Source: Candidatus Rhodoferax bjergmarkensis
Lineage (GTDB): Bacteria > Pseudomonadota > Gammaproteobacteria > Burkholderiales > Burkholderiaceae_C
Assembly (NCBI GenBank): GCA_016708345.1
Contig: JADJFX010000007.1
Coordinates: 96,339 to 160,338, forward strand
Direction: 5' to 3'
Length of the DNA: 64,000 bases
Part shown: one piece after another, positions 17,003 through 49,766 of the stretch
Layout: every line of letters begins with the position of its first letter
Position numbering within the stretch: position 1 is the stretch's first letter
The notes under the pieces: model-generated
Databases searched by the model: none
What the model was told of the DNA's origin: nothing
The model's input: the letters and a program-made list of their open reading frames with translations, nothing else
Translations under genes and position numbers: made by a program

Positions 17003-17036
17003 GCGCACCAACCTCTCGCAGCGCACGGGCGCAGGC

Positions 17037-19012: not shown

Positions 19013-20850
19013 GGAATACGAGACACCACATGAGGCCAAGTATCGCACCTTAGAAGCGCCTGCGATCCGCGTGAAGCAGTCCATTTAGCGCCCCACCTGG
19101 CAGATTCACCACCAGGGCTTGATGTTCAAGAGCGTGATGTGCTGGGCGCGGCATGTACCGAGCGCAGAGACATCCCGCAGCGATTCAAAATCGCCACTTT
19201 GACCTCTCACCAGTTGATACGCTGATCGACCTCAAAGTCGGGTACCGGTTGAGCTGCCCCATCCCAGTCGGTTGCCCAATCTGGCTCGGTTTGCGCCCCG
19301 TCATCCATCTGCGCATCACCGCAGTCATCCCACAGCGGTGGTCCGCGCGCTGGGGCTATGTGCGGGGGCTCCGAGTCCACCCCGATGTGATCCAGAATCC
19401 GCCTGATCTGCCTGCCCTCGGTGACAAAGGCGATCAGGCGCATCTGCCCGCCACATAGCGGGCACAGCAACGGGAACACCTCGTAGATGCGGGCGATCAG
19501 CACCGCCCACAGGTAGTGGGCCGGGCGCTTGGTCGGTACGGGTTCGGGCGTGGGTGAAATTGCATTGCCCAGCGGCGCGGGGCGGTGTGCGTCATCGCCC
19601 GTGGCATCTGGCTGGGCATCCGCCATGGCCGTAACCGCTGAGCGCAGCGGCGAGTTCGGCGCCAGCACACCAAAGTAGCGATGCCGGTGGGTGCGCGGTG
19701 GTGGCACCAGGGCGGCAATGCGGTCGATCAGCTCCAGCGCTGTGAGGTGCAGTTCGTCCACCTTGGCGCCACGCTTGTCACTGGTGGGCTCGCTGCGCTG
19801 TTTGGCGCAGCGGTACACCAGGGCTGCGCCCTCTTTGCGAAGGCGTTCCATGGCAAAGGGTGGGCGGGCGCAATACCTCAGCAAGCGCTCCAGGGCTGCG
19901 CGGTCGTCTGCTTCAATGCAGACACCGGCGTCCACCGAGAAGCCGCTGTGCTGGTAGGCCAGCATCTCTTTGGCATCAGCCTTCTCGATCAGGCCCCGGC
20001 CGACGAAGGCGCGCAGGATGCGTCGGCGCAAATCGGTCTGTACCTGGGCCACAGCGGTCTCGTCGATAGCACTGGCCGGGTGAAAAACGATGCCCGGTGG
20101 TGAGGATTGGACGTCGGTTTGGCCCACCACCGCCACCGGTATTTCCTCAAACACGCCATCGACCACACAGACGTGGAAGTGCACATGAGCGTTCAGGCTG
20201 GAGCCGAACCGGTGGATAAACGCCACGGCGCCGATGTGCTTGGCCGCCTTGTCCACATTTGCCGCACCGGGGCTGTGGGTCTGCAGGCTTTGCGCAATGA
20301 CCCGCAGGAAGATGCGCAGCACCATGTTGAGCACTGCCCCGTCACGCTGCATGAAATAGCGCAGTCGCTTCGGCACCGACAGCACCCACTGGCGCACCGG
20401 CAGGCGGGGGAAGACGTGGTCGCAGAGGTGCGCCGCCGTCTCCACCATGCGCCGGGTGTTGCACGAGGGGCACACGCCCCGGCCTTTGCAGGAATAGGCC
20501 ACGAAGTAGTCGTGCCCGCAGTCATCACACCACGCCCGGGCAAAGCCATGGGCGAAGATGCCGCATTCCAGATATTTGCGAAAGGCTTGGCGGACATAGG
20601 GCCTGGGGCTGTGGTGGTCGCCCTGGCCATCGAACTGACCGGCACTGGCCAACTCAAACCAGGTCTCAAAATGCTCGGCTATGGTTTGGTACAGCAGGGT
20701 CCGCTCGGGGTGGTGCCGGTTGTAGAGCTTTGGCTTTGTACCCGCTTGCCCGCCCGCGTGTGAATGCGCTTGCGTTGGGCGTGCAGTGGCGGGCATGGGG
20801 CAGTGCCAGCGTGGGCTGGGTGCCTGATGATACTGGGTTTATATCCAGCT
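19013..20850 (-). mobile_element. ISCR-type (IS91 family) element, copy 1 (type C)
   Basis: Intact 529-aa ORF 19207-20796 with Zn motifs CDDC/CKGRGVCPSC, HUH motif HVHFH and single-Tyr RLLRYCARPP; degenerate ori end near 19011. Confidence 0.92.
20833..20848. promoter_or_regulatory. LexA (SOS) box upstream of transposase copy 1
   Basis: taCTGGGTTTATATCCAGct fits CTG-N10-CAG. Confidence 0.7.
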
Positions 20851-26756: not shown

Positions 26757-26834
26757 TTACCCCTGCAACTCAAACACCGCCATGCTTTCCACATGCGCCG
26801 TGTGGGGGAACATGTTCACCACGCCCGCCATGAC
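26757..26834 (-). pseudogene. rlmD: Last ~25 codons of the 23S rRNA m5U methyltransferase RlmD
   Basis: MAGVVNMFPHTAHVESMAVFELQG*; directly abuts oriIS of copy 2. Confidence 0.8.
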
Positions 26835-28755
26835 GGATAGGCCATTCAACCGCCCTAGCCGAAGTATCGCGCCCCGGTATAGCCTTCGAGCCCCGTGAAA
26901 ACCCTGAGTTTCTTGCCCGCGTTGCTGGTTCACCAGCAAAATGCACCGTCGCCAGAGCCTATAGCGCTGCTGCGGGTGCGTCGGGCGCAGGCCTACCCTG
27001 CAGCGATTCAAAATCGTCGCTTCGCCCATTCACCAACTGATGCGCTGGTCTACCTCGTAGTCGGGGCTGGTTGCTCTGCTAAATCCCAACCCGACTCGCT
27101 TTGCACCCCTTCACCTGTCTGCGCATCACCACCGTCCTCCCACAGCGGTGGCCCGCGTGCCGGGGAGATGTGCGGGGGATCAGTCTCCACCCCGATGTGG
27201 TTCAGAATCTTCTTGATCTGCGTGCCCTCGGTAATGAACGCAATCAGACGCATCTGGCCACCGCACTTTGGGCACAGCAGCGGGAAAACCTCGTAAATGC
27301 GGGCGATCAAAACGGCCCACAGGTAGTGCGCTGGGCGCTTGGGCGGCACCGGCTCTGCAGGCCCGCTCTGGCCTGGGAGCACATTGCCCAGCGGTGCCAC
27401 ACCAGGCGCACCCTCCCCCGTGGTGCTCGGCTGCGCCGTGGCCGGGTGGGCCGGTGCTGCAAGCGCTGTGACCGCAGCCCTGAGCGGCGAATTCGGGGCC
27501 AGCACACCAAAGTAGCGGTGCCGATGCGTGCGTGGTGGCGGCACCAGGGCTGCTATGCGGTCGATCAGCTCCAGCGGTGTGAGGGTGATTTCGTCTACCT
27601 TGGCACCGCGCTTGTCACTGGTGGGCTCGCTGCGCTGCTTGGCACAGCGGTACACCAGGGCTGCGCCCTCTTTGCGAAGGCGGTCCATGGCAAAGGGCGG
27701 GCGGGCGCAGTAGCGCAGTAAGCGCTCCAGCGCAGCGCGGTCGTGTGCTTGGATGCACACACCGGCATCCACCGAGAAGCCGCTGTGCGTGTAGGCCAGC
27801 ATGTCTTTGGCGTCACAACTCTCCAGCAGGCCCCGAGCGACGAAGGCGCGCAGGATGCGTTTTTGCAGGGTGGTCTGCACTTGGGCAACGGCATCCGCAT
27901 CGATGGCGCTGGCCGGGTGGAAGATGACGCTCGGCGCAGGGGCTGGAGGAACATCCGCGTCGCCCTCGCCCGCCACCGCCTCAATCACCCCATCGACCAC
28001 GCAGACGTGGAAATGCACATGCTGGTTCAGGCTGGAGCCGAATCGGTGGATAAAGGCGATGGCCCCGATGTGCAGGGCGGCCTTGTCTACCTGTGCCGCA
28101 CCGGGGCTGTGGGTCTGCAGGCTTTGCGCGATGACCCGCAGAAAAATACGCAGCACCATGCCCAGCACTGCCCCCATCGCGCTGCATGAAGTAGCGCAGC
28201 CGCTTTGGCACCGACAGCACCCACTGGCGCACCGGCAGGCGGGGGAAGACGTGGTCCGTGAGGTGTGCCGCCGTCTCCACCATACGCCGGGTGTTGCACG
28301 AGGGGCACACGCCACGGCCTTTGCAGGAAAAGGCCACAAAGTAGTCGTGGCCGCAGTCGTCACACCAGGCTCTGGCAAAGCCGTGGGCAAAGATGCCGCA
28401 TTCCAGATATTTGCGAAAGGCTTGGCGGACATAGGGCTTTGGGGTGTGGTGGTCGCCCTGCCCGTCGAACTGGCCTGCGCTGGCCAACTCAAACCAGGTC
28501 TCAAAGTGCTCGGCTATGGTTTGGTAGAGCAGGGTTCGCTCAGGGTGGTGCGGGTTGTAGAGTTTGGATTTGCTGCCCGATTGGCCACCCGCTGGCCCAC
28601 CCGCGTGCGGGTGTGAGCAGGCTTGCGCGGTACGGGCGGCGACAGGCATGGTGCAGCGCCAGAGCGAGCGTATTGGCTCGGGCTGGGTGCACCATGTTAC
28701 TGTTTTTATATCCAGTTATATCCGCTTGGTATGGCTTGACAGGCCATCTGCAGAC
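26835..28755 (-). mobile_element. ISCR-type element, copy 2 (type A)
   Basis: oriIS GGATAGGCCATTCAACCGC; transposase in ORFs 27981-28649 and 27050-28504 (frameshifts); hairpin ATGGC-TTGACAG-GCCAT at 28731-28747. Confidence 0.92.
28700..28715. promoter_or_regulatory. LexA box, copy 2
   Basis: taCTGTTTTTATATCCAGtt. Confidence 0.8.
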
Positions 28756-28760
28756 ACTCA

Positions 28761-28834
28761 TTCACTTCTGAATTGATAACTACCTGCGCACGCCAGGCGT
28801 GCGCAAAGGCACTATTTCTATGCATAAACCCGGC
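28761..28834. repeat. REP-like repeat, copy c
   Basis: Perfect hairpin GCGCACG-CCAGG-CGTGCGC. Confidence 0.85.
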
Positions 28835-28918
28835 GTCTTGCGCATGGATTGAGCGTCATGGCTCAAGCCTCACATCGACTCGCTGATGCCCTAATGCCTG
28901 TCCCGACAAGAGTTTCTT

Positions 28919-30635: not shown

Positions 30636-30732
30636 TAATAACCCTCACAGATGATTTCTGGCGACGTTGCCCAAGGTTTGAGATCGGGGGATGCCAACTT
30701 GCTGGCTTGTTGAACCGCCCACTGCGAACAAC

Positions 30733-32668
30733 GGATAGGAAATTCAACCGCATGAGGCCAAGTATGTCACGGGTTTGGGGCCACGAAACACGTCTGGCCC
30801 TGGCAATTTGAGCGCTCGCAGCCGCTCAACGACGAGGCCTTGGGTTGCAAGATGGATTTGGGGCTGGCGCGCACGCAGCTGCTCCCCGCAGCAGTCGAAA
30901 TCACTGCTGGGGTCCATCACCAATTGATGCGCTGATCCACCTCGTAGTCTGGGGCGGGTTGTGCCGCAATGTCCCAATCTGGCTCGACATCAGCACCCTC
31001 GCCCACCTGCGCGTCACAACCCTCCCACAGCGGTGGCCCACGTGCCGGGGCGATGTGTGGGGATCGGACTCCACCCCAATGTGATTGAGAATTTGCAGGA
31101 TATCGGCGCGGTGGGTGATGAACGCAATCAGGCGCATCTGCCCACCGCACATTGGGCACAGCAGCGGGAATACCTCGTAGACGCGTGCAATCAGCACCGC
31201 CCACAGGTAGTGGGCTGGACGCTTGGGCGGCACCGGCTTGGAAGGCTCGGTCTGGGTTGGGAGTGCGTTGCCTTGCTGCACAACCCCAAATGCGCCCACG
31301 CACGCACCCGTGCTGGCTGGCTCGGCCTGCGCAGTGACCGGTTGCGCAGGTAGCACCTGTGCCAGCGCTGTGACCGCACAGCGCAGTGGCGAATTCGGGG
31401 CCAGCACACCAAAGTAGCGGTGCCGGTGCGTGCGCGGCGGCGGCACCAAGGCCGCAATGCGGTCGATCAGCTCCAGCGGTGTGAGGTGCAGTTCGTCTGC
31501 CTTGGCACCGCGCTTGTCACTGGTGGGCTCGCTGCGCTGTTTGGCGCAGCGGTACACCAGGGCTGCGCCTTCTTTATGCAGCCGATCCATGGCAAAGGGT
31601 GGGCGCGCGCAGTAGCGCAGCAGCCGCTCCAGTGCCGCGCGGTCGTGGGCTTCGATGCACACACCCGCATCCACCGAGAAGCCGCTGTGCTGGTAGGCCA
31701 GCATGTCTTTGGCGTCACAGCTCTCCAGCAGCCCCCGGCCGACGAAGGCGCGCAGGATGCGTTTTTGCAGGGTGGTCTGCACTTGGGCCACGGCGGCCTG
31801 GTCAATAGCGGTGGCCGGGTGGTAAATGACACCCGGCGAAGATGCTTGCACCTGGGCAGCAGCCCCGCCCACGCCCGCCACCGCCTCAAACACCCCATCG
31901 ACCACGCAGACGTGGAAATGCACATGCCCGTTCAGACTGGAGCCGAATCGGTGGATAAAGGCGATGGCGCCGATGTGCAGGGCCGCCTTGTCTACTTGTG
32001 CCACACCGGGGCTGTGGGTCTGCAGGGTTTGCGCGATGACCCGCAAGAAGATGCGCAGCACCATGTTCAGTACCGCCCCGTCACGCTGCATGAAGTAGCG
32101 CAGGCGTTTGGGCACGGACAGCACCCATTGGCGCACCGGCAGACGCGGGAATACGTGATCGGTGAGGTGCGCGGCCGTCTCCACCATGCGCCGTGTGTTG
32201 CACGAGGGGCACACGCCCCGGCCTTTGCAGGAATAGGCCACAAAGTAGTCATGCCCGCAGTCATCACAGCGGGCGCGGGCGAAGCCATGGGCAAATATGC
32301 CGCATTCCAGGTATTTGCGAAATGCTTGACGGACATAGGGCTTTGGGGTGTGGTGGTCGCCCTGGCCGTCGAACTGGCCGGAACTTGCCAACTCATGCCA
32401 GGTCTCGAAGTGTTCGGCAATGGTTTGGTACAGCAGGGTTCGCTCAGGGTGGCGCGGGTTGTAGAGCTTGGGCTTGGCGCCCGATTGGCCACCCGCTGAC
32501 CCTCCCGCGTGCGGGGCCGGGTGGGCGTGCGGATGCAGTAGCGTTTGCGCGGAACGGGCAGCGACAAGCATGATGCGGTGCCAGAGCGAGCGTGTGTGCT
32601 CGGATTGGCTGCACCATAGTACTGTTGTTATATCCAGCTATATCAACCTGAATACCGTTTACGGAGGT
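30733..32668 (-). mobile_element. ISCR-type element, copy 3 (type B)
   Basis: oriIS GGATAGGAAATTCAACCGC; transposase ORF 30901-32571 with a frameshift near the 3' end; nested hairpin ACCT..CCGT-TT-ACGG-AGGT at 32646-32668. Confidence 0.92.
32622..32637. promoter_or_regulatory. LexA box, copy 3
   Basis: taCTGTTGTTATATCCAGct. Confidence 0.78.
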
Positions 32669-32671
32669 TCG

Positions 32672-32744
32672 TTCACTCCCTAATTGATAGCTGCCTCCGC
32701 ACGCCAGACGTGCGCAAAGGCACTATTTTGTTCACAAACCCAGC
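32672..32744. repeat. REP-like repeat, copy d
   Basis: TTCACTCCCTAATTGATAGCTGCCTCCGCACGCCAGACGTGCGCAAAGGCACTATTTTGTTCACAAACCCAGC. Confidence 0.85.
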
Positions 32745-32745
32745 G

Positions 32746-35225
32746 TCAACCCCGCCCCAGCACCGCCGCCAATTCCCGACCGGTGTGCGTACCCAGCGCC
32801 ACCAGCGCCTCGGGTGTGCCCGCCGCCACAATGCGCCCGCCACCCGTGCCGCCTTCCGGCCCCAGGTCGATGATCCAGTCGCTCTCGGCAATCACGTCCA
32901 GGTCGTGCTCGATGACGACCACGCTGTGCCCGGCGTTGACCAGGCGGTGCAGCACGTGGATGAACTTTTCCACATCGGCCATGTGCAGGCCCACGGTGGG
33001 TTCGTCCAGCACGTACAGGGTGTGCGGTACTTTTTGCCCGCGTTTGGTGATGTCGTCGCGCACTTTGCTCAGCTCCGTCACCAGCTTGATGCGCTGCGCC
33101 TCGCCACCGCTGAGGGTGGGTGACGGCTGGCCCAGCGTGAGGTAGCCCAGGCCCACGTCTTTGAGCAGTTGCAGCGGGTGGGCAATGGATGGCATGGCGG
33201 CGAAGAAGTCGACCGCTTCGTCCACCTCCATTTGCAACACATCGCCAATGTTTTTGCCGCGCCAAGTCACCGCCTGCGTCTCGGGGTTAAAGCGGGCTCC
33301 TTTGCAGGTTTCGCACAAGACCTTTACATCCGGCAAAAAGCTCATGCCAATGGTGCGTATGCCCTGCCCTTCGCAGCCGGGGCAACGACCCTCGCCGGTG
33401 TTGAAGCTGAAGCGGTTGGCGGCGTATCCGCGCGCCTTGGCTTCCAGGGTGTCGGCAAAGAGTTTGCGGATTGTGTCCCAGAAGCCGATGTAGGTGGCGG
33501 GGCAACTGCGTGGGGTTTTGCCAATGGGGGTTTGGTCGACTTCCAACACGCGGTCTACGGACTCGAACCCGCTCACGCCCTGGCAACCTACCCAAGGCGG
33601 ATGCTCGCCTTTTGATAGCTGCTCTCGCCCGTCCCTTGTGCTCTGCAGGCTTACTACGGCCTGAACATTGGCCAACAACACATCACGCGCCAAAGTCGAC
33701 TTGCCGGAGCCGGAAACGCCGGTGATGGCGACCAGGCGTTTTAACGGGACGTGGGCGGTGACGGCTTGTAGGTTGTGCAGGGTGGCGTTGTGGACGGTTA
33801 GCCAGTTGATGGGGGCGTAGCTGGGCTCCGCGGCTACGGGGCCCGCAGCGGGTGCGCCTGGGGCGGGGGCCTCATGCGCTTGCTGCGCAATCGCAAAATC
33901 GGCACCCACCCCAGGCGCACCCGCTGCTGCCACGGTAGATCTTTCCATGGAGCGGTTGGCCAGTTCGGCGTAGGTGGCGGCAACGCGGTTGCGCTCTACA
34001 AACTCCGCGTTGACCGCTGCGCTGGCAGCTGCATTGGCGGCCGCAACCGCCGCAGCCTTTGCTGCCTTGCCTTTGGGCTTCTGACCCGCATCGCGCCCGC
34101 CCGGTCCGGCGGTCGGAGTCGGTGCGCCGGGGACCGATTTTGCAGTCGCGTAGCGAATGCATGAGGCCCCCGGCGTGCCGGCTCCGGCCGTAGCGAGTGC
34201 TACAACGCCCCCCGCAGCAACCACCGCATCCAGCGACAAAGACTCCGCATAAGAAACCGTAAACCGCCGCAGCGCCAACGGATGCCGCATCGCATGCAAC
34301 AAATACCGCCCGGTCTGCGACTCCGCCGCGTTCTGCACATCGGCCACCGAACCCTGCGCCACCAGCCGCCCACCACGCTTGCCCGCACTGGGCCCAATGT
34401 CGATGATGTGGTCGGCATGGCGAATGGTGTCCTCGTCGTGCTCTACCACCAGCAACGTGTTGCCCAAGTCGCTCAAACGGCGCAAAGCACCCAGCAGAAT
34501 TTTGTTGTCCCGCGCGTGCAGCCCAATGGTGGGCTCGTCCAGCACGTAACACACCCCCTGCAAATTACTACCCAACTGCGCCGCCAGCCGAATGCGCTGT
34601 GCCTCGCCGCCGGACAGCGTGGGTGCTCCCCGGTCCAGCGTGAGGTAGCCCAGGCCCACTTCTTCCAGAAACTGCAAGCGGCTCTGAATCTCGGGCAACA
34701 GGTCGCGCGCAATGTCGGCCTCGCGGCCCGTCATGCCCCCTTCCACCAGCAGGCCCTGCACCCACTCGCGCACATCGCCCACGCTCAGGCGCGCGATGTC
34801 GGTGATGGAAACGCCTGAGGTATGCATAGCAAACCGCACGGCGCGCGCGGTGGCATTCAGGCGCGTGCCGTGGCAGGTGGGGCAGGTGGCGTCATGCAGG
34901 TCTTCCACATCGGCCTCGGCAAAGGTCTGCTCGCGGCCTTGTGTGTCGTCGTCCTTCACGGAGTCATCGAACACCTTGCGCTGCTCTTTGGTCAGCGCCA
35001 CACCAGTGCCCACGCAGTCCGGGCACCAGCCGTGTTTGCTGTTGTAGCTAAACAGGCGCGGGTCCAGCTCGGCGTAAGACGTGGCGCACACCGGGCAGGC
35101 GCGTTGGGTGGAAAACACCTGCACCGTGCCAATCCCCGCGGTGGGTGTGCCCGCCGCCATGGCCTCGCGCAGGCCGTGCATGGCGCTCATCACCTGCACC
35201 ACGCCTTTGGCGTGCGCACGTCCGT
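32746..35225 (-). pseudogene. uvrA: UvrA, 3' part only
   Basis: Zn fingers CPVC/CPDC/CPTC, LSGGEAQRIRLA, GVSGSGKST, IGKTPRSCPATY, LDEPTVGLH; no 5' half, joins the stop of the 560-aa ORF. Confidence 0.88.
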
Positions 35226-35227
35226 CC

Positions 35228-36910
35228 TCAAAGACGCGGCAGACGCGCCAGATCCGCCCTGAAATACTTGCGCTGCGCCACCTGCAGAGCAGCCAGTTGC
35301 GACTCCAGCTTGCGCCGCAGTTCGGCGGCCTCCTTCGCCCTGTCATGCAGCACCAGTTGCCACAGATGCTCCAGCATCGCCGCGCAGCGCTGTATGGGCG
35401 AGATCGTCGGATCGCCCGCGTCTTCGCTCACGGCATCCAGCATGCGACCCGTGAGCGCAAACCAGTCGGGCAACGAGGGCGGCAGCAGCAACTCGCACAA
35501 GGCGTGCAGCTCGCGCACCGCCGGATCGCTGGCATCGCCCTCGTCATGCGCGAGTTCAGCGCGCAGATCCGCAAGACTCCAGATCCGCGAACGCCAATCG
35601 ATCGGTGACTCGGACTGCGTTGTGACCTGCCCATCGCCAACATCGCCCGCATCATCCGCGCCGACCACCGCACCCCGCGCGATGCGGCAGATGTAGATGA
35701 TGTTCCAGTACGAACCCGAACCCAACCCATGCCGCCGCGCGAGCGCCTCGCCCGTGAGAATCCAGCGCACGGCCAGCCTTCTGCCCGCACCCGCCCCCAC
35801 ACGCTGCTGCAAGGCAGGCGCGAGCAGCCACAGCGAATAGCCCAGATTGGACGCCACCGCCTCCATGAGCGTGAGCGAGTCGGTCTCCACCGCACACACC
35901 AGCGCCAGTTGCATGTCGCGCAGCACCTGCACCGCGTCCTGCTCGGGCTGCTCGGGCTGCTCGTGCGATGTGCCCAAAAGCAAGGCCCGCCGCGCCAATG
36001 CACGCAGGTTGAAATACTCGGCCGCCAGACGCGAACTCAGCCGCAGCGCTGCCGCGTCTCCCTCGAAGCGATCGCTCATCTGCTCCAGCCGCATCAGCGC
36101 CGCTGCGCTGCGGTTGTCCTGATGGTCGCACCACGCAAGTCCGATTTCGGACATCGCATCGAGCACCGGCAGACGCTGAAAGGAATCATCATCGCCACGC
36201 TTCAGCGCAGCAGACCGGCAGCGCCGACGCAGCTCCTTGTAGAGCGCCCGCGCCTCATTGCCCTTTCTCGCCAGACGCGCATAACGGGCCTGCAGATTCA
36301 AGGCCCACAGCGGCGATGCGTCACCGCTCGAGTCCGGCACATCGCGATGGTGCACACGCGAAAATCCATCCATCACCTCGGGCAGGGACAGCCGCCCTTC
36401 TTCCGCCGACTGGCGCAGAACGAAGACGCGCATCCACCGCTCAAGCTGCGCTTCAAGCTGTTTTTCCAGTCCTTCGCCCACCGTGCTTTCAGCAGCGCTT
36501 TGCGCCATCCCCGACATGCGCGCCAGCAGACCTTTCTGCACCGCAGGCGTGATCCGTTTTCCACTCACGCAGAACGTCAGTCGCTCCAGCTCCCCTCGCG
36601 CAAGCCAGAACGGGCCATGCACGCGTCCGCGCACCGACAGCGCAGACGCATCCGCGCGCGCATTGCGTCCCCAGCCGACCGTGATTCCCGCCTGCGCAAA
36701 CTGCTTGAACGCACGACTGAGCGCCATCGGGAAAGCCGTTCCGGTCTGCCCCGCAAAGTGCAGGCTGTAGACCGGAACCGTCGACTGCCCCGCACGTCTG
36801 GCAACGGCCAGCGCCAGCAGAAGCAGCACCGCAAAGCGTGATGCAGCCACATCGCCCAAGGTCCACGGAGCTTCAAGCGCGATCTGAATAGCTGGTTTTT
36901 TCGTGGGCAT
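35228..36910 (-). CDS. 560-aa hypothetical protein; putative regulator (possible N-terminal winged helix plus TPR-like helices)
   Basis: Clean ORF divergent from the beta-lactamase; helical repeat-like C-terminus; function inferred from position only. Confidence 0.6.
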   Translation of the reverse strand: MPTKKPAIQIALEAPWTLGDVAASRFAVLLLLALAVARRAGQSTVPVYSLHFAGQTGTAFPMALSRAFKQFAQAGITVGWGRNARADASALSVRGRVHGPFWLARGELERLTFCVSGKRITPAVQKGLLARMSGMAQSAAESTVGEGLEKQLEAQLERWMRVFVLRQSAEEGRLSLPEVMDGFSRVHHRDVPDSSGDASPLWALNLQARYARLARKGNEARALYKELRRRCRSAALKRGDDDSFQRLPVLDAMSEIGLAWCDHQDNRSAAALMRLEQMSDRFEGDAAALRLSSRLAAEYFNLRALARRALLLGTSHEQPEQPEQDAVQVLRDMQLALVCAVETDSLTLMEAVASNLGYSLWLLAPALQQRVGAGAGRRLAVRWILTGEALARRHGLGSGSYWNIIYICRIARGAVVGADDAGDVGDGQVTTQSESPIDWRSRIWSLADLRAELAHDEGDASDPAVRELHALCELLLPPSLPDWFALTGRMLDAVSEDAGDPTISPIQRCAAMLEHLWQLVLHDRAKEAAELRRKLESQLAALQVAQRKYFRADLARLPRL

Positions 36911-37023
36911 CGGTGCTTGTTATGAAAGTTATGAACTCGCATTTTACGAACGAGAACGCCAAGGGCATGCTTGCGGCCATTGTCATCAGCACATTCATTT
37001 TTCACCCACGAAAGCCGCACACC

Positions 37024-37908
37024 ATGCACCGTCGCCAATTCCATCTTCACGCGCTGAGCGCCTGCGCCGCCGCTGCCGCATTGCCGCTGACCGCCTGCTC
37101 CACAGCGCAGAGTCAAAGCGCATCCGAGCCATGGTCCCGCATCGAAAAACAATCCACCGGACGCATGGGCATCGCCGTGCTCGACACCGCCGATGACAAG
37201 TGGGAGGGGCAGCGTCTCGATGAGCGCTTTCCCATGTGCAGCACCTTCAAATGGCTTGCGGCGGCCCATGTACTGCAACGTGTCGATCAGGGCCGCGAAC
37301 AGTTGGATAGACGCATCCGTTTCGAGCGCAAGGCGCTGATCGAATACTCGCCCATCACCGAACCGCAAGCAGGCAAGAACGGCATGACGCTGGCCGAGCT
37401 GTGCCACGCAGCCATCACCGTGAGCGACAACACCGCCGCCAATCTGATTCTGGAAACGCTGGGCGGTCCGCAAGGCATGACGGCATTTGCGCGCTCGCTC
37501 GGTGACGAGGTCACACGTCTCGATCGCTGGGAGCCCGATCTGAACGAAAGCAAACCCGGCGATCCGCGCGACACCACCTCGCCGCGCGCCATGGCCACGC
37601 TGCTGCAGCAACTGGTGCTGCGCGATGTGCTTTCGCCGCGCAGCCGCGAGCTGCTGGTTCAGTGGATGCGTGCGACCAGCACCAATCGCAACCGCCTGGC
37701 CGCAGGTCTTCCGGAAGGCTGGAAGATCGGCAGCAAGACCGGCTCTTCAGGCACGGGATCGGTCAACGATGTGGGCGTGTTCTGGCCACCGAATCGCCCG
37801 CCCATCATCGCGGCGGTCTACATCACACAAGGCACAGGCAGCACCAAGAACATCGAGCCCGCGATTGCCGCCGTCGCGCAGCACATCACGCGCGGCGCTG
37901 CACGCTGA
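37024..37908 (+). CDS. Class A serine beta-lactamase (Tat/lipoprotein-type signal)
   Basis: MCSTFK (S70), SDN, WEPDLNE (E166/N170), KTG; RRQF twin-arginine motif and LTAC lipobox. Confidence 0.95.
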   Translation: MHRRQFHLHALSACAAAAALPLTACSTAQSQSASEPWSRIEKQSTGRMGIAVLDTADDKWEGQRLDERFPMCSTFKWLAAAHVLQRVDQGREQLDRRIRFERKALIEYSPITEPQAGKNGMTLAELCHAAITVSDNTAANLILETLGGPQGMTAFARSLGDEVTRLDRWEPDLNESKPGDPRDTTSPRAMATLLQQLVLRDVLSPRSRELLVQWMRATSTNRNRLAAGLPEGWKIGSKTGSSGTGSVNDVGVFWPPNRPPIIAAVYITQGTGSTKNIEPAIAAVAQHITRGAAR

Positions 37909-37927
37909 ACCGCTTGCGCTTCACACG

Positions 37928-38381
37928 TCAAAGCCCGAGCAGCCCTTCCACCAGCTCGCGCCGCGCGAGCTTGCGTGCGTTGCCGCGCTGCCAGTGGTAG
38001 ATGTCATAACCGTTGGAATACAGCAGCGAGCCATCGGCCAGCACGTCGAACTGCGCAACATGGCTTGCTATCTCTTCGGGCGCGGCATTGCGGCCCGCCT
38101 GCGCGATGAGCTTCCACGACGCAGGCACGAGGTTGCCCGCGTATTCGGGATCGTTGCGCACCTTGGAGAGTTCGATGCGGCGGCCATGCAGCCACAGCGT
38201 GCCGAGGTCCTGATCGAGCTCCGGCGTGCGCGGGCCACCGGCCGAACGCAGCGGCTCCTTGCCATAGAGCATCGAGAACACGTTCAGATAACCGAACACC
38301 GCCTTGCCCAGACGCAGCGGCATCAACAGCGCATCCTTGGCCGCGCCGCCCGCCTTTTCGTGCAGCGGCTTGTCGGCGGAC
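37928..38381 (-). pseudogene. C-terminal fragment of a hypothetical protein cut by oriIS of copy 4
   Basis: Open reading with its own stop at 37928 that runs into oriIS. Confidence 0.6.
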
Positions 38382-40307
38382 GGATAGGAAATTCAACCGC
38401 ATGAGGCCAAGTATGTCACGGGTTTGGGGCCACGAAACACGTCTGGCCCTGGCAATTTGAGCGCTCGCAGCCGCTCAACGACGAGGCCTTGGGTTGCAAG
38501 ATGGATTTGGGGCTGGCGCGCACGCAGCTGCTCCCCGCAGCAGTCGAAATCACTGCTGGGGTCCATCACCAATTGATGCGCTGATCCACCTCGTAGTCTG
38601 GGGCGGGTTGTGCCGCAATGTCCCAATCTGGCTCGACATCAGCACCCTCGCCCACCTGCGCGTCACAACCCTCCCACAGCGGTGGCCCACGTGCCGGGGC
38701 GATGTGTGGGGGATCGGACTCCACCCCAATGTGATTGAGAATTTGCAGGATATCGGCGCGGTGGGTGATGAACGCAATCAGGCGCATCTGCCCACCGCAC
38801 ATTGGGCACAGCAGCGGGAATACCTCGTAGACGCGTGCAATCAGCACCGCCCACAGGTAGTGGGCTGGACGCTTGGGCGGCACCGGCTTGGAAGGCTCGG
38901 TCTGGGTTGGGAGTGCGTTGCCTTGCTGCACAACCCCAAATGCGCCCACGCACGCACCCGTGCTGGCTGGCTCGGCCTGCGCAGTGACCGGTTGCGCAGG
39001 TAGCACCTGTGCCAGCGCTGTGACCGCACAGCGCAGTGGCGAATTCGGGGCCAGCACACCAAAGTAGCGGTGCCGGTGCGTGCGCGGCGGCGGCACCAAG
39101 GCCGCAATGCGGTCGATCAGCTCCAGCGGTGTGAGGTGCAGTTCGTCTGCCTTGGCACCGCGCTTGTCACTGGTGGGCTCGCTGCGCTGTTTGGCGCAGC
39201 GGTACACCAGGGCTGCGCCTTCTTTATGCAGCCGATCCATGGCAAAGGGTGGGCGCGCGCAGTAGCGCAGCAGCCGCTCCAGTGCCGCGCGGTCGTGGGC
39301 TTCGATGCACACACCCGCATCCACCGAGAAGCCGCTGTGCTGGTAGGCCAGCATGTCTTTGGCGTCACAGCTCTCCAGCAGCCCCCGGCCGACGAAGGCG
39401 CGCAGGATGCGTTTTTGCAGGGTGGTCTGCACTTGGGCAACGGCATCCGCATCGATGGCGCTGGCCGGGTGGAAGATGACGCTCGGCGCAGGGGCTGGAG
39501 GAACATCCGCGTCGCCCTCGCCCGCCACCGCCTCAATCACCCCATCGACCACGCAGACGTGGAAATGCACATGCTGGTTCAGGCTGGAGCCGAATCGGTG
39601 GATAAAGGCGATGGCCCCGATGTGCAGGGCGGCCTTGTCTACCTGTGCCGCACCGGGGCTGTGGGTCTGCAGGCTTTGCGCGATGACCCGCAGAAAAATA
39701 CGCAGCACCATGCCCAGCACTGGCCCGCCCTGCTGCATGAAGTAGCGCAGCCGCTTTGGCACCGATAGCACCCACTGGCGCACCGGCAGGCGGGGGAAGA
39801 CGTGGTCCGTGAGGTGTGCCGCCGTCTCCACCATACGCCGGGTGTTGCACGAGGGGCACACGCCACGGCCTTTGCAGGAAAAGGCCACAAAGTAGTCGTG
39901 GCCGCAGTCGTCACACACCAGGCTCTGGCAAAGCCGTGGGCAAAGATGCCGCATTCCAGATATTTGCGAAAGGCTTGGCGGACATAGGGCTTTGGGGTGT
40001 GGTGGTCGCCCTGCCCGTCGAACTGGCCTGCGCTGGCCAACTCAAACCAGGTCTCGAAGTGCTCGGCTATGGTTTGGTAGAGCAGGGTGCGCTCAGGGTG
40101 GCGCGGGTTGTAGAGTTTGGATTTGCTGCCCGATTGGCCACCGCTGGCCCACCCGCGTGCGGGTGTGAGCAGGCTTGCGCGGTACGGGCGGCGACAGGCA
40201 TGGTGCAGCGCCAGAGCGAGCGTATTGGCTCGGGCTGGGTGCACCATGTTACTGTTTTTATATCCAGTTATATCCGCTTGGTATGGCTTGACAGGCCATC
40301 TGCAGAC
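38382..40307 (-). mobile_element. ISCR-type element, copy 4 (B/A hybrid)
   Basis: Ori half matches copy 3, upstream half matches copy 5; frameshift near 39910. Confidence 0.92.
40252..40267. promoter_or_regulatory. LexA box, copy 4
   Basis: taCTGTTTTTATATCCAGtt. Confidence 0.8.
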
Positions 40308-40312
40308 ACTCA

Positions 40313-40386
40313 TTCACTTCTGAATTGATAGCTACCTGCGCACGCCAGGCGTGCGCAAAGGCACTATTTCTATGCATAAACCCAGC
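40313..40386. repeat. REP-like repeat, copy e
   Basis: Same hairpin as copy c. Confidence 0.85.
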
Positions 40387-40470
40387 GTCTTGCGCATGGA
40401 TCGAGCGCCATGGCTCAAGCGTCGCATCGACTCGCTGACGCCCTGCTGCCTGTCCCGACAAGAGTTTCTT

Positions 40471-40936: not shown

Positions 40937-43749
40937 TCAAGCCTGCACAGCAAACTTGCCCGGCAGGGTGATGACGGTCTCAAAGGCTCGCAGGTCGGCG
41001 TCAACGTTGTTGTCCAGCAAATGGATTTCAATGCTGCCGCCTTCGTTTTCCAGAAAGCCCTTGACCGCGTCCATGCCCACGCCGCGTCCGGACACTTCGG
41101 TCACTTTTTCGGCGGTCGAGAAGCCGGAGGCAAAAATCATCTTCGCCACCGTTTCAGGTGATGCCGCATTGCCTTCGGGTAGCATGTTTTCTCGATCGCC
41201 ATTTTGCGAATGCGGCCAATGTTCAGGCCCCTGCCATCGTCGCGCAAGCTCAATTTGAGCTTGTCGTCTTCGACGCTCATGGCCAGCTGAATGTTGCCCA
41301 CCTGCGTCTTGCCCGCCGCTTGGCGCACCTCGGCGGTTTCCAGGCCATGGTCAATCGAGTTGCGCAGCAGATGCACGAACAGGTTTTTCAGCAGACCGCC
41401 GATCTGGTTGCGCACCACAATGCCTTGGTCGTCAATGCGGATCACCGGCGGCTCCTTGCCCAGCTCCTTGGCCAGCGAGGGGATGGACTCGATCACTCCA
41501 GAAAGAATCTTGTCGATTTTCTCGGTGCCAATCAGGCTCAGCGTCTTGCCAATTTGGGACAGCGCTGCGCGCATGGCGGCGAGGTCGGTGGCATCCACCG
41601 AATCGACCAGTTGTATCGACTGCGCCACCTGTTCTTTGTCAACCAGCAAGAACTTTTCAACGCCGCCCCGGCGCCCTGGTCCTTTGCGACCCAGCGTGTG
41701 GCTGTTGACCTTGGCGTATTCGTCCACAAGGTTTTTGACCTGCGCCAGTTGCTGCCCCAGCATCTCGGAGTCCCAGACCATCTCGGGGTTCTGACGCAAC
41801 TCATGGTAGGTCTGTTCCGTCTCGTGCACCACGTTGGTCATGTGCAGCAAACCGTAGGTTCTGGCATTGCCCTTGATGGTGTGCATGTTGCGGAACAGTA
41901 CGCCGATGACGCCGTCATCCTTTTGGGCGGTTTTCTGGGTAATGACCTCGTTCTCAGCGACAAACTTGTACGAACTGTCGACGAACTCCTGGAATTTTTC
42001 CTGACTGACGGCCAGGATTTCACCAATGATTTCGAGCTCGCGTTTTTGCGCATTGGCTTCTTTGCCCAAGCGTTTGAGCTCGGTGACGTCGCGGGCGCAT
42101 AGCATGATTTTCTCAACCACATCGTTGGCATCGCAAATGGGCGACCAACTCAGCTCGATCGATTTGACCCGGCCATCTGGCATCGTTTTATCAAATTCGG
42201 TGACCATCAAGTGTGAGTTGAATTCGAAGTTCATCCGGTCCTCTCCAACGCAGGCATCCACCGCCGCTTCTACTTGCGACAGAGGGTCGGAGCCCAGGTT
42301 GGTGTTGGAGAACACCAGTTTCATCAGATTCTTGCCGGCAATCTCGTGCGTTTCAAACATGGTTTCCAGGTAGGCCGAGTACTCGGGGTGGATCACGTTG
42401 TTTGCCAATACGGTCAACACGCCCTGTGGCATGTTCTGCATCATGGCCTGGATGTCGTGGGTCTTTTGGGCCAACTGGGCGGTGCGTTCGGTGACCAGGT
42501 GCTCCAGATTGTCGTTGAGCACCTTCAGATCCTTCACCAGAATCTTGTTTTCCACGAAGGTGTTGGCGAAGGTATTGGAGGCCACATAAAGCATGGTGCC
42601 AACAAATATGGCGGTGCCAAAAAACACCATGGCAAAGCTGCTGATGACGCCCAATGAAAGCAGGATATCGTTGAATCCGGTCACCAAGATGGACGAGATA
42701 CCAACCAGAAGAATGGCGGAACCAGGTTTCCGATGCTGGATCCCTCGAATCAGCTGATAACAACCACCGAATCCGCCTAACAGGACGCCGATGAATAGAA
42801 AGGTTTTCACTGGCTGGAAAAGTTCCAGATTGGGGTGAATGGTCATCGTGGCAATGTACAAACCCGAAGCGCCCAGCAGCACACCGCCAACCCAGTTGAT
42901 CTTGGGCGTGAACTTGTGAAAAAACTGCGTGAAGATGTAGAACAAAAAGATGGCGCAAATACCGGGGTAATGCAGGTAAAGCATGGTCTCCGGCTCAAAC
43001 AGTTTGACGAAATAATCGGCTGGCGCGCCAAAAAATGGAAAGATCAAAATACTGGAAGAGCCGCAAACCAGATAAAGCGCGTACCGGGTCTTGGCGAAAA
43101 CCAGTAGGAAAAAGAATCCAAAAAACAAAATCACGTACGAGATGATGATGCGCGCCTCACCGCCCAGGAGCTGGTAGATGACCACACCACGGTCATGCTG
43201 GTCGTATTTGCGCAATTCAAAGGGCAATTGGTATACCCCCACCATCAGGGGCGTATCAATGCGCATGGCCAGCACGTGGTGCGGCTGACTGATCTTGAAA
43301 CGCACAGGAATGGCCTGAGTTGAAAAATACGGCTCAACATTGATGTTGTTGGGGCGACGGTAAATTTCTTGACCATCGACGTAGATGTTGACTCGCGCCA
43401 TGTAGGCATTGACCAAAAGGACGACTTCTTGCCCCACCAGCGAGGGATGGAATTCGAAGTGCCCGCGGTACCAACCTATGGGAAATACCTTTTTGTCGTT
43501 ATAGACACCTTTCCACGGCCCCGGTGCCTTGGCCAGTCGCCAGCTGGAAGTATCAAGGTTGACGTCCTTGTTTTGGGGGGAATCGTCGCGGGTAAAAAGC
43601 CACTTGCCGCTCAATTTCAGTGGCTTGTCCAGACTTTCAATCTGGATTTTGCAGGAGGTGCAGCCGACTTGATGCGCTGGTGAGTTGGCCGCTGCTTTTG
43701 CGAACAAGGAGCAAAAAATCAGCAGCAGCAATGCGAGTCTCGAAAGCAT
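40937..43749 (-). CDS. Membrane sensor kinase: 7TM-DISM-type sensor + PAS-like + Hpt + CheA-type HATPase (frameshift near 41160)
   Basis: Sugar-binding-like LSGKWLF..GWYRGHF, about seven TMs, Hpt LFRNMHTIKGNAR, HLLRNSIDHG, DDGRG, IFASGFSTAEKVTEVSGRGVGMDAV. Confidence 0.8.
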
Positions 43750-44023: not shown

Positions 44024-44282
44024 TTATTGGATGCCCAGCAATTGATCCTTGAGTTTCCAATTGGTCGGCTGTTGCCCCAGCCAGACGCTGGCGATGGCAT
44101 AGAAAAATTCGGGCTCCTTGAATGGCTCGCCCTGCTGCTTGCCCTTGCCGTTAACCACCAGGCCGGTGCCCGGAATCCAGTCCAGCGTCACGACGTCACC
44201 CTCGACAAAAGTCTTGGCTGTGGAAAAAATCTCACCCATGCGCATCAGGCCCGGAATGAGTTTGGACAACTCACTGCGGGAC
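44024..44282 (-). pseudogene. Chalcone-isomerase-like protein, C-terminal fragment
   Basis: LDWIPGTGLVVNGKGKQQGEPFKEPEFFYAIASVWLGQQP; cut by oriIS of copy 5. Confidence 0.7.
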
Positions 44283-46209
44283 GGATAGGCCATTCAACCG
44301 CCCTAGCCGAAGTATCGCGCCCCGGTATAGCCTTCGAGCCCCGTGAAAACCCTGAGTTTCTTGCCCGCGTTGCTGGTTCACCAGCAAAATGCACCGTCGC
44401 CAGAGCCTATAGCGCTGCTGCGGGTGCGTCGGGCGCAGGCCTACCCTGCAGCGATTCAAAATCGTCGCTTCGCCCATTCACCAACTGATGCGCTGGTCTA
44501 CCTCGTAGTCGGGGGCTGGTTGCTCTGCTAAATCCCAACCCGACTCGCTTTGCACCCCTTCACCTGTCTGCGCATCACCACCGTCCTCCCACAGCGGTGG
44601 CCCGCGTGCCGGGGAGATGTGCGGGGGATCAGACTCCACCCCGATGTGGTTCAGAATCTTCTTGATCTGCGTGCCCTCGGTAATGAACGCAATCAGACGC
44701 ATCTGGCCACCGCACTTTGGGCACAGCAGCGGGAAAACCTCGTAAATGCGGGCGATCAAAACGGCCCACAGGTAGTGCGCTGGGCGCTTGGGCGGCACCG
44801 GCTCTGCAGGCCCGCTCTGGCCTGGGAGCACATTGCCCAGCGGTGCCACACCAGGCGCACCCTCCCCCGTGGTGCTCGGCTGCGCCGTGGCCGGGTGGGC
44901 CGGTGCTGCAAGCGCTGTGACCGCAGCCCTGAGCGGCGAATTCGGGGCCAGCACACCAAAGTAGCGGTGCCGATGCGTGCGTGGTGGCGGCACCAGGGCT
45001 GCTATGCGGTCGATCAGCTCCAGCGGTGTGAGGGTGATTTCGTCTGCCTTGGCACCGCGCTTGTCACTGGTGGGCTCGCTGCGCTGCTTGGCACAGCGGT
45101 ACACTAGGGCAGCGCCCTCTTTGCGAAGGCGGTCCATGGCAAAGGGCGGGCGGGCGCAGTAGCGCAGTAAGCGCTCCAGCGCAGCGCGGTCGTGTGCTTG
45201 GATGCACACACCGGCATCCACCGAGAAGCCGCTGTGCGTGTAGGCCAGCATGTCTTTGGCGTCACAACTCTCCAGCAGGCCCCGAGCGACGAAGGCGCGC
45301 AGGATGCGTTTTTGCAGGGTGGTCTGCACTTGGGCAACGGCATCCGCATCGATGGCGCTGGCCGGGTGGAAGATGACGCTCGGCGCAGGGGCTGGAGGAA
45401 CATCCGCGTCGCCCTCGCCCGCCACCGCCTCAATCACCCCATCGACCACGCAGACGTGGAAATGCACATGCTGGTTCAGGCTGGAGCCGAATCGGTGGAT
45501 AAAGGCGATGGCCCCGATGTGCAGGGCGGCCTTGTCTACCTGTGCCGCACCGGGGCTGTGGGTCTGCAGGCTTTGCGCGATGACCCGCAGAAAAATACGC
45601 AGCACCATGCCCAGCACTGGCCCGCCCTGCTGCATGAAGTAGCGCAGCCGCTTTGGCACCGATAGCACCCACTGGCGCACCGGCAGGCGGGGAAGACGTG
45701 GTCCGTGAGGGTGTGCCGCCGTCTCCACCATACGCCGGGTGTTGCACGAGGGGCACACGCCACGGCCTTTGCAGGAAAAGGCCACAAAGTAGTCGTGGCC
45801 GCAGTCGTCACACCAGGCTCTGGCAAAGCCGTGGGCAAAGATGCCGCATTCCAGATATTTGCGAAAGGCTTGGCGGACATAGGGCTTTGGGGTGTGGTGG
45901 TCGCCCTGCCCGTCGAACTGGCCTGCGCTGGCCAACTCAAACCAGGTCTCAAAGTGCTCGGCTATGGTTTGGGTAGAGCAGGGTTCGCTCAGGGTGGCGC
46001 GGGGGACCTTGTAGAGTTTGGATTTGCTGCCCGATTGGCCACCCGCTGGCCCACCCGCGTGCGGGTGTGAGCAGGCTTGCGCGGTACGGGCGGCGACAGG
46101 CATGGTGCAGCGCCAGAGCGAGCGTATTGGCTCGGGCTGGGTGCACCATGTTACTGTTTTTATATCCAGTTATATCCGCTTGGTATGGCTTGACAGGCCA
46201 TCTGCAGAC
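44283..46209 (-). mobile_element. ISCR-type element, copy 5 (type A)
   Basis: oriIS identical to copy 2; 541-aa ORF 44478-46103 with local compensated frameshifts. Confidence 0.92.
46154..46169. promoter_or_regulatory. LexA box, copy 5
   Basis: taCTGTTTTTATATCCAGtt. Confidence 0.8.
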
Positions 46210-46214
46210 ACTCA

Positions 46215-46288
46215 TTCACTTCTGAATTGATAACTACCTGCGCACGCCAGGCGTGCGCAAAGGCACTATTTCTATGCATAAACCCGGC
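46215..46288. repeat. REP-like repeat, copy f
   Basis: Identical to copy c. Confidence 0.85.
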
Positions 46289-46372
46289 GTCTTGCGCATG
46301 GATTGAGCGTCATGGCTCAAGCCTCACATCGACTCGCTGATGCCCTAATGCCTGTCCCGATAAGAGTTTCTT

Positions 46373-48582: not shown

Positions 48583-48720
48583 GCTTTTGGGCGGCGCTGG
48601 CGGGATGCAGCGCAAGGCGTCCTGAGCGCGGTTTGGCCAGCAAAACAAACGAGGGCAACGAAGCAATGCGCCCGGCAGTGCCGACAAAAACGGGATATTG
48701 CTTTCTTCTGCACCCCTAAG
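48583..48720. repeat. About 140-bp MITE/REPIN-like element, copy 2
   Basis: Aligns with 12695-12833. Confidence 0.7.
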
Positions 48721-49359: not shown

Positions 49360-49766
49360 AGTTACTGCTGGACTCGAACGTCATTGTTTCAGGCCTGCTT
49401 AGCACCAAATCCAGCCCAGGCCAGCTCATGCGGCTGTGGCGAGAGCGGTACTGCGAGTGGGTTACCTGCGAGCAGCAACTGGCCGAACTGACGGTGGTTT
49501 TGTGCCGCCCCTGGGTCGCCAGCCGGGTTGACGGTAGCCTGGGCTCGGTCTACGCCTTCATGCGTGAGTTTCATGGCAAAACGACCCAGCTGACCCTTGA
49601 GCCACCCTTTGAACCCGTTTGTCGCGACCCCAACGACGATTTTTTACTGGCCATGCTGACCCGCCACCCGATTGATTTCCTAGTTTCTGGCGACAAAGAC
49701 CTGTTGAGCCTGAAACACCTTTACCCCACCATTTTGACGCCCCGCGAACTGATTGATCGGCTATGA
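49356..49766 (+). CDS. PIN-domain toxin (COG1569-like)
   Basis: [31 protein letters not shown]. Confidence 0.88.

Follow-up and report, generated by a model that had tools for sequence, protein, structure and literature searches.

A class A beta-lactamase gene and its Rp3-type divergent neighbor, probably captured by ISCR8-like elements, in Candidatus Rhodoferax bjergmarkensis

Overview of the locus

We analyzed a stretch of 64,000 nt from a contig of Candidatus Rhodoferax bjergmarkensis (JADJFX010000007.1, assembly GCA_016708345.1); this whole stretch is referred to as the window, and all coordinates are given in its numbering. The window carries a gene for a class A beta-lactamase of no named family (bla) and, divergent from it, a gene for a protein of 560 amino acids (aa) that appears to belong to the family of the Ralstonia regulator ORF-RP3, here called Rp3. 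The reading that we favor, with a probability of roughly 0.7, is that this unnamed class A gene and its Rp3-type partner form a divergon that was captured from a Diaphorobacter-type chromosome by elements resembling ISCR8 (ISCR, insertion sequence common region). The captured module occupies 3.17 kb (35210..38379) and includes the regulator gene, a candidate operator, bla, and the remnant of a further gene; its probable source is the Diaphorobacter HDW4 clade. The preliminary description of bla had considered the enzyme in isolation, and the present analysis adds to it that the gene was horizontally acquired, is flanked by ISCR-like elements, and is paired with an Rp3-type regulator.

The class A beta-lactamase

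The bla gene (37024..37908, plus strand) starts with ATG, ends with TGA, is open throughout, and encodes 294 aa. Its product scores 326.2 bits with the NCBIfam model bla_class_A (NF033103), above the cut-off of 200, and 181 bits with the Pfam family Beta-lactamase2. Among solved structures, the best matches are reconstructed ancestors of Gram-negative class A enzymes (GNCA), with those of PenA-type and CTX-M enzymes next. Ambler numbering was anchored by alignment to TEM-1, for which the reference sequence was confirmed over its full length against the TEM entries of the PDB. In this numbering the class A motifs S70-x-x-K73, S130-D-N, E166, and K234-T/S-G are all present at canonical spacing, and the residues at the positions of interest are C69, S70, K73, E104, Y105, S130-D131-N132, R164, E166, N170, D179, R220, K234-T235-G236, S237, S238, G240, and V244. 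A single residue is inserted relative to TEM between positions 110 and 116. The ratio of non-synonymous to synonymous substitution rates (dN/dS) between bla and two relatives is 0.06-0.11, hence the gene is under purifying selection and is maintained.

The product was compared with the named class A families of NCBIfam (release 20, June 2026), and none of the 25 best listed families reaches its cut-off. The highest score is that of ACA (298.3 bits, cut-off 592), followed by BOR (279 bits), PEN-Bcc (278 bits), PAD (278 bits), L2 (270 bits), and CAE (267 bits). The closest gene on PLSDB plasmid records encodes a protein with 56% identity, and CAE-1 is 49% identical. The enzyme shares with PenA/PEN, L2, ACA, and CAE-1 the fold, the catalytic residues, C69, R220 in place of R244, and a signal with a twin-arginine (RR) pair, whereas it differs from the named Burkholderiales families in falling below every cut-off, in its identity of at most 56% to PLSDB genes, and in having S238 where relatives have G238. 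Taken together, the product of 37024..37908 is predicted to function as a serine beta-lactamase (Ambler class A) from an unnamed lineage, for which hydrolysis of beta-lactams would be the expected activity.

The signal peptide is encoded by 37024..37098. The N-terminus reads MHRRQFHLHALSACAAAAALPLTAC and contains the twin-arginine stretch H-R-R-Q-F-H-L, with the RR pair at codons 3-4 (37030-37035) and a lipobox, L22-T23-A24-C25, at codons 22-25 (37087-37098). The L-T-A-C sequence matches the consensus [LVI][ASTVI][GAS]C at the end of the h-region, and Cys25 is the predicted lipidated first residue. All 15 aligned homologues retain the RR pair, down to 58% identity. The lipobox Cys is found in the four closest sequences and in 3 of 11 more distant homologues, the remainder having Ala-x-Ala-like sites. 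The intergenic alignment is conserved up to the ATG of bla (GAAAGCC..CACC immediately 5' of it) and decays farther upstream in the manner of non-coding DNA; the 294-aa start is therefore favored over the starts called elsewhere, which give 325-331 aa, the recorded HDW4B protein having 325 aa. Most likely, the enzyme would be exported in the folded state by the twin-arginine translocation (Tat) pathway, lipidated at Cys25, and anchored in the membrane. PenA, which likewise has the RR signal together with a lipobox, and BRO-2 offer precedents: the B. pseudomallei PenA and BRO-2 already combine Tat export with lipoprotein anchoring (PMC10235803), so the combination is neither unusual nor novel.

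These results agree with most of what had been proposed for the gene in the preliminary description. The catalytic motifs were rightly given as intact; the calls of Cys69, KTGS with Ser237, Arg220, and the absence of Arg244 and Cys238 are each correct in the alignment anchored to TEM-1; the failure to match a named allele is reproduced at the family level, with ACA scoring best; and the twin-arginine signal and lipobox are present as sequence features, the former conserved across the clade. Its suggestion of extended-spectrum features fared differently and is taken up below.

Diaphorobacter-type origin of the module

The exact bla protein is present in the NCBI nr database, and its 90% cluster includes a protein of Diaphorobacter sp. 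HDW4B with 94% identity; the homologues in HDW4A and D. aerolatus are 80 and 77% identical, respectively. The gene order is shared by HDW4B, HDW4A, and D. aerolatus: a gene of about 546 codons (minus strand), bla (plus strand), a gene for a 392-aa protein (minus strand), and a cytochrome c gene, beyond which lie a molybdopterin oxidoreductase gene (uncalled in D. aerolatus) and then one for a ferredoxin subunit. No transposases were called within the 20-kb bla loci of these three complete genomes. The unit formed by regulator, operator, and bla is a native part of the chromosome in the HDW4B/HDW4A/aerolatus clade.

In the window, the DNA similarity to HDW4B extends over 3146 nt (35235 to 38377, 88.8% nt identity) and then stops. 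Downstream of bla, the gene for the 392-aa protein, full-length beside bla in Diaphorobacter, is represented by a remnant (37928..38379, minus strand) that retains approximately 150 codons of its 3' part and is cut by the oriIS end of an ISCR-like element. When 14 genes of HDW4B were compared with the host genome by tblastn, close matches were obtained for three of them only, namely the 546-aa gene (87% aa identity), bla (93%), and the 392-aa gene (99%, its last 149 codons only); the other 11 flank genes have no close homologue in the host genome by this search. Since the closest candidate donor is only 88.8% identical at the nucleotide level, the true donor would be an unsequenced relative of the HDW4 clade.

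An alternative is that bla is an intrinsic host gene inherited vertically, near which insertion sequences merely landed. The gene does lie inside a 214-kb chromosomal contig with housekeeping genes such as metG, and at about 63-66% G+C it resembles the adjacent host DNA in composition. Against this stand the phylogenetic distribution, the divergence, and the edges of the module. A class A match was found in one of 24 genomes of the host's GTDB genus, at 48% identity, and the remaining 23 genomes have no such gene. The bla product is 94% identical to that of a genus whose MetG is just 73% identical to the host MetG (HDW4B), compared with 82-88% for Rhodoferax, Curvibacter, and Acidovorax. The downstream gene is cut exactly at an oriIS end, the upstream neighbor is a truncated uvrA fragment, and synteny with same-genus genomes is absent before metG, beginning at about 49.8 kb of the window. 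We consider vertical inheritance highly improbable: the bla module is foreign to its host, a Rhodoferax/Curvibacter-like member of the Comamonadaceae.

The ISCR array and the proposed capture of the module

Between 19 and 46 kb, the window contains five elements of the IS91 family with Y2 transposases of the HUH type, all in direct orientation and encoded on the minus strand. Copy 1 (19160..20760) has an intact transposase gene (tnpA 19207..20796, 529 aa) and is approximately 78-86% identical to the other copies at the nucleotide level. In copy 2 (26832..28837), tnpA (27050-28650) is frameshifted near 28170. Copy 3 (30731..32747), which resembles ISCR8/ISPps1, contains an intact tnpA (30901..32571, 556 aa) and has its oriIS end at 30731. 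Copy 4 (38380..40389), also ISCR8/ISPps1-like, abuts the module with its oriIS end, and its tnpA (38566-40313) is frameshifted near 38708, 39915, and 40073-40163. Copy 5 (44280..46291) has an intact tnpA (44478..46103, 541 aa) and is 99% identical to copy 2 in nucleotide sequence. Three of the five transposase genes (copies 1, 3, and 5) are thus intact. The domains PF04986 (Y2_Tnp) and PF14319 (Zn_Tnp_IS91) are found in copies 1, 3, 4, and 5, while copy 2 keeps PF04986 only.

The copies are mosaics of two subtypes, and the elements of the array are about 82% identical in nucleotide sequence to ISPps1 of pADP-1 and of other catabolic plasmids. Pseudomonas sp. ADP, the host of pADP-1, is listed as a carrier of ISCR8 (PMC13393415). 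The NCBIfam cut-offs for transposases were not reached, the scores being 103.8 of 125 bits for the IS91 equivalog and 251.7 of 925 bits for ISCR clade Ia. The array shares with ISCR8/ISPps1 the Y2_Tnp and Zn_Tnp_IS91 domains, the multiple direct copies, the truncated foreign segments between them, and the defined oriIS junctions. It differs in its setting, since ISCR8/ISPps1 elements are known mainly beside catabolic genes on plasmids, whereas the array described here is chromosomal and contains a beta-lactamase divergon.

The junctions of the module are defined at both ends. The oriIS end, ACGGATAGGAAATTCAACCGC, is identical at 30731 and 38380 and also occurs in metagenome contigs, and it meets the module at 38379|38380. 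On the other side, the terIS/promoter side of copy 3 faces the module, with a fragment of a uvrA paralogue between them (32746..35209, minus strand). This fragment is 5'-truncated, lacking approximately the first 200 codons, and is an earlier captured piece; the junction between it and the module lies at 35209|35210, across which the annotated 866-aa uvrA open reading frame (ORF) continues into the module by chance. The first 1,059 bp of copy 4 equal positions 30731-31788 of copy 3 (1,058 bp) except for an extra G at 38708, and copies 3 and 4 bound a direct-repeat unit of 7.65 kb.

Rolling-circle replication with read-through is the established model for IS91 and ISCR elements. Replication would start at oriIS, proceed through the transposase gene, and run past terIS into adjacent DNA. 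By analogy, the 3.17-kb Diaphorobacter-type piece may have been picked up by read-through of an ISCR8/ISPps1-like element, successive captures accumulating to give the arrangement found here. Because copies 3 and 4 share the near-identical 1,058-bp direct repeat, the unit could move again, either by replication from the oriIS of copy 3 or by excision as a 7.65-kb circle; this capture route and the present-day mobility of the module are inferred from the analogy with characterized elements.

The Rp3-type regulator

The gene for the 560-aa protein (35228..36910, minus strand) is divergent from bla across a gap of 113 bp. The protein has no Pfam or NCBIfam match, and its family is small, with 52 representatives among 1.84 billion proteins. 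BLASTP aligned it over 438 collinear residues (27% identity, E-value 3e-20) with the partner of a gene identified as a member of the OXA-60 family at 617 bits (cut-off 550), and the Rp3 family profile scores an E-value of 3e-103 on that locus. ORF-RP3 is the activator required for the beta-lactam induction of both OXA-22 and OXA-60 in Ralstonia pickettii, as summarized in PMC3660660 and PMC10039701. Its gene lies 192 bp upstream of the OXA-60 gene in divergent orientation, and the protein gives a footprint over tandem repeats (PMC3660660); it is described as being without homology to other regulators (PMC10039701). We conclude by homology that the 560-aa protein is a member of the Rp3 family.

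The association of this family with beta-lactamase genes extends well beyond the window. Five distant homologues from metagenomes or genomes are, without exception, back-to-back with a beta-lactamase gene, which is of class A in loci L098 and L100, class D-like in L099 and L102, and of the OXA-62 family in L101. Among 400 sampled Burkholderiales genomes, 15 besides the host have an Rp3 member, and 14 of these 15 have a divergent class D neighbor. A class A or D neighbor was found at 19 of 20 further loci, as well as in the three Diaphorobacter genomes. The class D neighbors (loci L110-L123 and L101) include members of the OXA-60, OXA-62, and OXA-1206 families. In one genome (G398), the Rp3 homologue consists of two separate pieces (loci L124/L125), and no class D gene lies within 1.5 kb.

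The AlphaFold2 (AF2) model of the 560-aa protein depended on the depth of the alignment: with 17 diverse sequences the predicted local distance difference test (pLDDT) score was 81.6, compared with only 52 for five close sequences. It predicts an alpha/beta N-domain of 130 residues followed by a superhelix resembling tetratricopeptide repeats (TPR). A Foldseek search of the PDB with the whole model returned weak TPR-like matches only (LGN/Pins, MalT domain III, PlcR, and NprR; E-values of at least 1e-3). In the modeled N-domain, helices at residues 25-39, 47-53, and 59-73 are followed by strands at 78-80 and 101-103, and the invariant residues M62, S65, R66, and F68 lie on the third helix, a topology merely compatible with a winged helix. 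A PDB profile search gave no match for this domain. Similarity to an OmpR/PhoB-type winged helix was sought and not found, the hhalign probability against ten Trans_reg_C domains of the host genome being 0.14%.

A candidate operator is located in the intergenic gap. It is a tandem direct repeat, GTTATGAAA GTTATGAAC (36919..36936), that lies 88-105 nt upstream of the bla ATG and 9 nt from the regulator start. The repeat consists of two copies of GTTATGAA, which read on the sense strand of the regulator as two ATAAC units with a period of 9 nt. The repeats are conserved in all five members of the Diaphorobacter-type clade, with three units in D. aerolatus. A more general motif, RTMAC with a 9-nt period, was defined on the first eight loci after they had been inspected, and the statistics for this first set are inflated accordingly: runs of two or three units occur in seven of the eight loci, 75-94 nt upstream of the bla start (129 nt in one of them), and runs of three were obtained in none of 20,000 shuffles, a figure subject to the same post hoc choice. 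In a set of eight independent loci, every locus has a run of two or three units on the same strand as before, and the opposite strand has no such run. The OXA-60 locus belongs to this set, and its repeat reads CGTCACGCG CGTAACGCC TGTAACGGC. Each examined Rp3 locus paired with a class D gene has a GT(A/C)AC repeat with a 9-nt period.

By analogy with Ralstonia, expression of bla would most likely be controlled by the divergent Rp3-type protein acting as an activator, with the two GTTATGAA units, about 90-105 nt upstream of the bla start, as the proposed binding site. The similarity to ORF-RP3 (Girlich et al. 2006, 2009, as summarized in PMC3660660 and PMC10039701) includes the size of about 530-560 aa, the divergent orientation at 110-200 bp from bla, and tandem repeats upstream of bla that match the footprint reported in those summaries. 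The window differs from that system in three respects: the partner is a class A rather than a class D enzyme, the repeat is ATAAC rather than GT(A/C)AC, and the divergon as a whole was moved by ISCR-like elements. It differs also from AmpR/PenR systems, since the divergent regulator is not of the LysR type.

One might suppose instead that the 560-aa protein does not regulate bla, being an unrelated conserved neighbor or a factor that acts on the enzyme after translation. The lack of a recognizable DNA-binding domain in Pfam, NCBIfam, the PDB profile search, and hhalign, together with the weak and exclusively TPR-like fold matches, would fit such a role. This explanation appears improbable, however, given that the pairing is kept with beta-lactamases of two classes and, apart from the family of the host, in at least six GTDB families, that the arrangement is always divergent, that the spacing between the bla start and a conserved phased repeat hardly varies, and that the Ralstonia member has been studied by genetics and footprinting, as far as the summaries cited above report this work.

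Substrate spectrum of the enzyme

The preliminary description had attributed possible extended-spectrum features to the enzyme, and this attribution is not sustained by comparison with its relatives. Every one of the 15 aligned Comamonadaceae-type relatives has C69 and R220, which therefore do not single out this enzyme, and position 237 varies between S, T, and G. The sole active-site change specific to the closest clade is S238, the other relatives having G238. With respect to the criteria for class A carbapenemases of the KPC/SME/NMC-A type, position 238 is Ser, so that the C69-C238 disulfide cannot form, and the carbapenemase model NF000538 scores 246.7 bits, below its cut-off of 390.

A stronger version of the same proposal would make the enzyme a true extended-spectrum beta-lactamase (ESBL) or a carbapenemase. 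S237, R220, and the natural S238 are suggestive residues in this respect. In the TEM and SHV enzymes, the classic ESBL substitution is G238S. Moreover, ACA, the best-scoring family, includes ACA-7, for which ESBL behavior is reported in P. aeruginosa PAO1 (PMC13435742), and CAE-1, of Comamonadaceae origin, raises the minimum inhibitory concentrations of ceftriaxone, though not those of ceftazidime or carbapenems (PMC9984417). Weighed against these points, the missing disulfide and the carbapenemase score of 247 of 390 bits disfavor a carbapenemase, the occurrence of C69 and R220 in every aligned relative predicts nothing specific, and the identity to any characterized enzyme is below 57%. We regard the stronger proposal as rather unlikely. 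ACA-7 and CAE-1 may serve as a loose guide only, as the substrate spectrum cannot be read from sequence.

Metagenomic copies and weighing of the capture reading

A variant of bla, P0127, has a product 97% identical to that of the window; the index lists it in 67 collection blocks, in each case on short contigs. The regulator-bla pair found in metagenomes is 94.5% identical in nucleotide sequence to the window (from 35210) and is again flanked by ISCR-like elements, with three different sets of junctions. The oriIS end lies 55 bp past the 3' side of the regulator in contigs L088, L090, and L097 and 93 bp past it in L095, and a 5'-truncated transposase gene is joined 83 bp after the bla stop in L088 and L089. 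In L095 (3150-3368), the module breaks at the equivalent of window position 38346 into unrelated sequence (TGAGGCTTGACGGTTTTCGGATTTGATC...), which may be the end of another mobile element. Because the synonymous divergence (dS) between the window and the metagenome copies is 0.20 and the junctions differ, these copies are read as probably separate or old capture events.

Several observations weigh against the capture of a regulated divergon as we propose it. The dS of 0.20 indicates that the captures are not all recent. Searches of PLSDB with both DNA and protein queries revealed no plasmid that carries the module, leaving its spread beyond chromosomes unproven, and the transposase gene of copy 4 is broken. 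With respect to regulation, a simple scan of 36700-38450 detected no sigma-70-like promoter; a terminator scan of the same region gave one hit, inside bla on the opposite strand and within chance expectation. The Ralstonia-type locus used for comparison was identified by its OXA-60-family neighbor, spacing, and size, and not by the published ORF-RP3 sequence. Finally, the regulator has no OmpR-type similarity, so that DNA binding is argued from the Rp3 homology and the repeats.

To the same side of the balance belong the state of the assembly, in which the genome is divided into 44 contigs with an estimated contamination of 4.47%, and the bracketing of the module by a near-identical repeat of 1,058 bp. 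Both would be consistent with an artefact of assembly or binning, in which the module of a co-occurring Diaphorobacter-like organism was joined in across shared ISCR repeats, as would the fact that the metagenome assemblies of the module break at ISCR copies and reach at most 6.4 kb. The left junction of the uvrA fragment with the module (35209|35210), however, is unique sequence and not a repeat; no further Diaphorobacter-type flank gene is present in the assembly; and a host-specific repeat of about 140 bp occurs on both sides of the array (12695-12833 and 48583-48720). An artefact of this kind thus seems a minor risk, and the association of the module with ISCR-like elements would hold even for a mis-joined contig. 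On balance, capture from a Diaphorobacter-type chromosome by ISCR8-like elements remains our preferred reading.

Other features of the window

The two copies of the ~140-bp repeat named above are 91% identical; many further copies are found on other host contigs, and their appearance is that of repetitive extragenic palindromic (REP) or miniature inverted-repeat transposable (MITE) elements. An intact gene for a 439-aa glycosyltransferase of family GT1, assigned to the macrolide-glycosyltransferase (MGT) subfamily at 168 bits versus a cut-off of 260, is located at 29316-30635 (minus strand) in DNA of about 52% G+C, immediately downstream of the oriIS end of copy 3; this gene, too, may have been captured, and its product could be a drug-modifying enzyme. 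Two copies of a gene for an FAD-dependent pyridine-nucleotide disulfide oxidoreductase resembling MerA/Lpd (46373-47815 and 16212-17393, both on the minus strand; 88% nt identity) are each located beside an ISCR copy, on its terIS side; the one at 15.6-17.0 kb is truncated, and another related ISCR-plus-flank copy is present on host contig C39. Between ISCR copies 4 and 5, the region 41137-43749 (minus strand, 51-55% G+C) encodes a protein of 870 aa that contains an Hpt domain and resembles CheA in its C-terminal part. The ORF for MetG (49763-51921, plus strand) has 632 aa, compared with approximately 690-720 aa in relatives with the C-terminal tRNA-binding domain (PF01588), and a separate ORF of 101 aa overlaps its end; the short length may reflect a frameshift or a sequencing error.

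Implications

The history proposed for this gene resembles in part that of blaCTX-M, mobilized from Kluyvera by ISEcp1 or ISCR1, in that an insertion sequence-free, syntenic chromosomal progenitor clade can be set beside a mobile copy with truncated flanks; the two cases differ in that the closest candidate donor here is 88.8% identical in nucleotide sequence and that no plasmid or clinical host is known yet. CAE-1 provides a second parallel, since its class A gene likewise derives from Comamonadaceae and is carried along with its regulator gene (PMC9984417). The module looks like an early stage of a resistance gene becoming mobile, a stage in the history of such genes that surveillance usually misses. 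The analysis identifies an unnamed class A lineage together with a probable chromosomal source in the Diaphorobacter HDW4-type clade, and it places bla, both in a second genus and in numerous assembled metagenomes, next to ISCR8-like elements of the kind that capture genes.

More tentatively, at somewhat less than even odds, the Rp3 activator, the operator with its 9-nt period, and bla may constitute a self-contained, portable cassette for inducible resistance, with a Tat-lipoprotein enzyme of an unnamed class A family as its cargo, first caught after capture by ISCR8-like elements and one step from plasmids. In the same tentative proposal, the Rp3 family would serve enzymes of classes A and D alike throughout Burkholderiales. 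Plasmid-borne beta-lactamases have been reported as Sec-exported (PMC10235803), and a mobilized Tat-exported lipoprotein enzyme, if real, would be a useful test of the limits that export signals set on host range. For the regulator itself, the locus adds a class A partner to Rp3, a little-studied activator of non-LysR type that had been described for two class D enzymes in a single Ralstonia species. It also shows the regulator moving in company with its target, and the conserved operator motif and the family alignment make the mechanism of induction testable.

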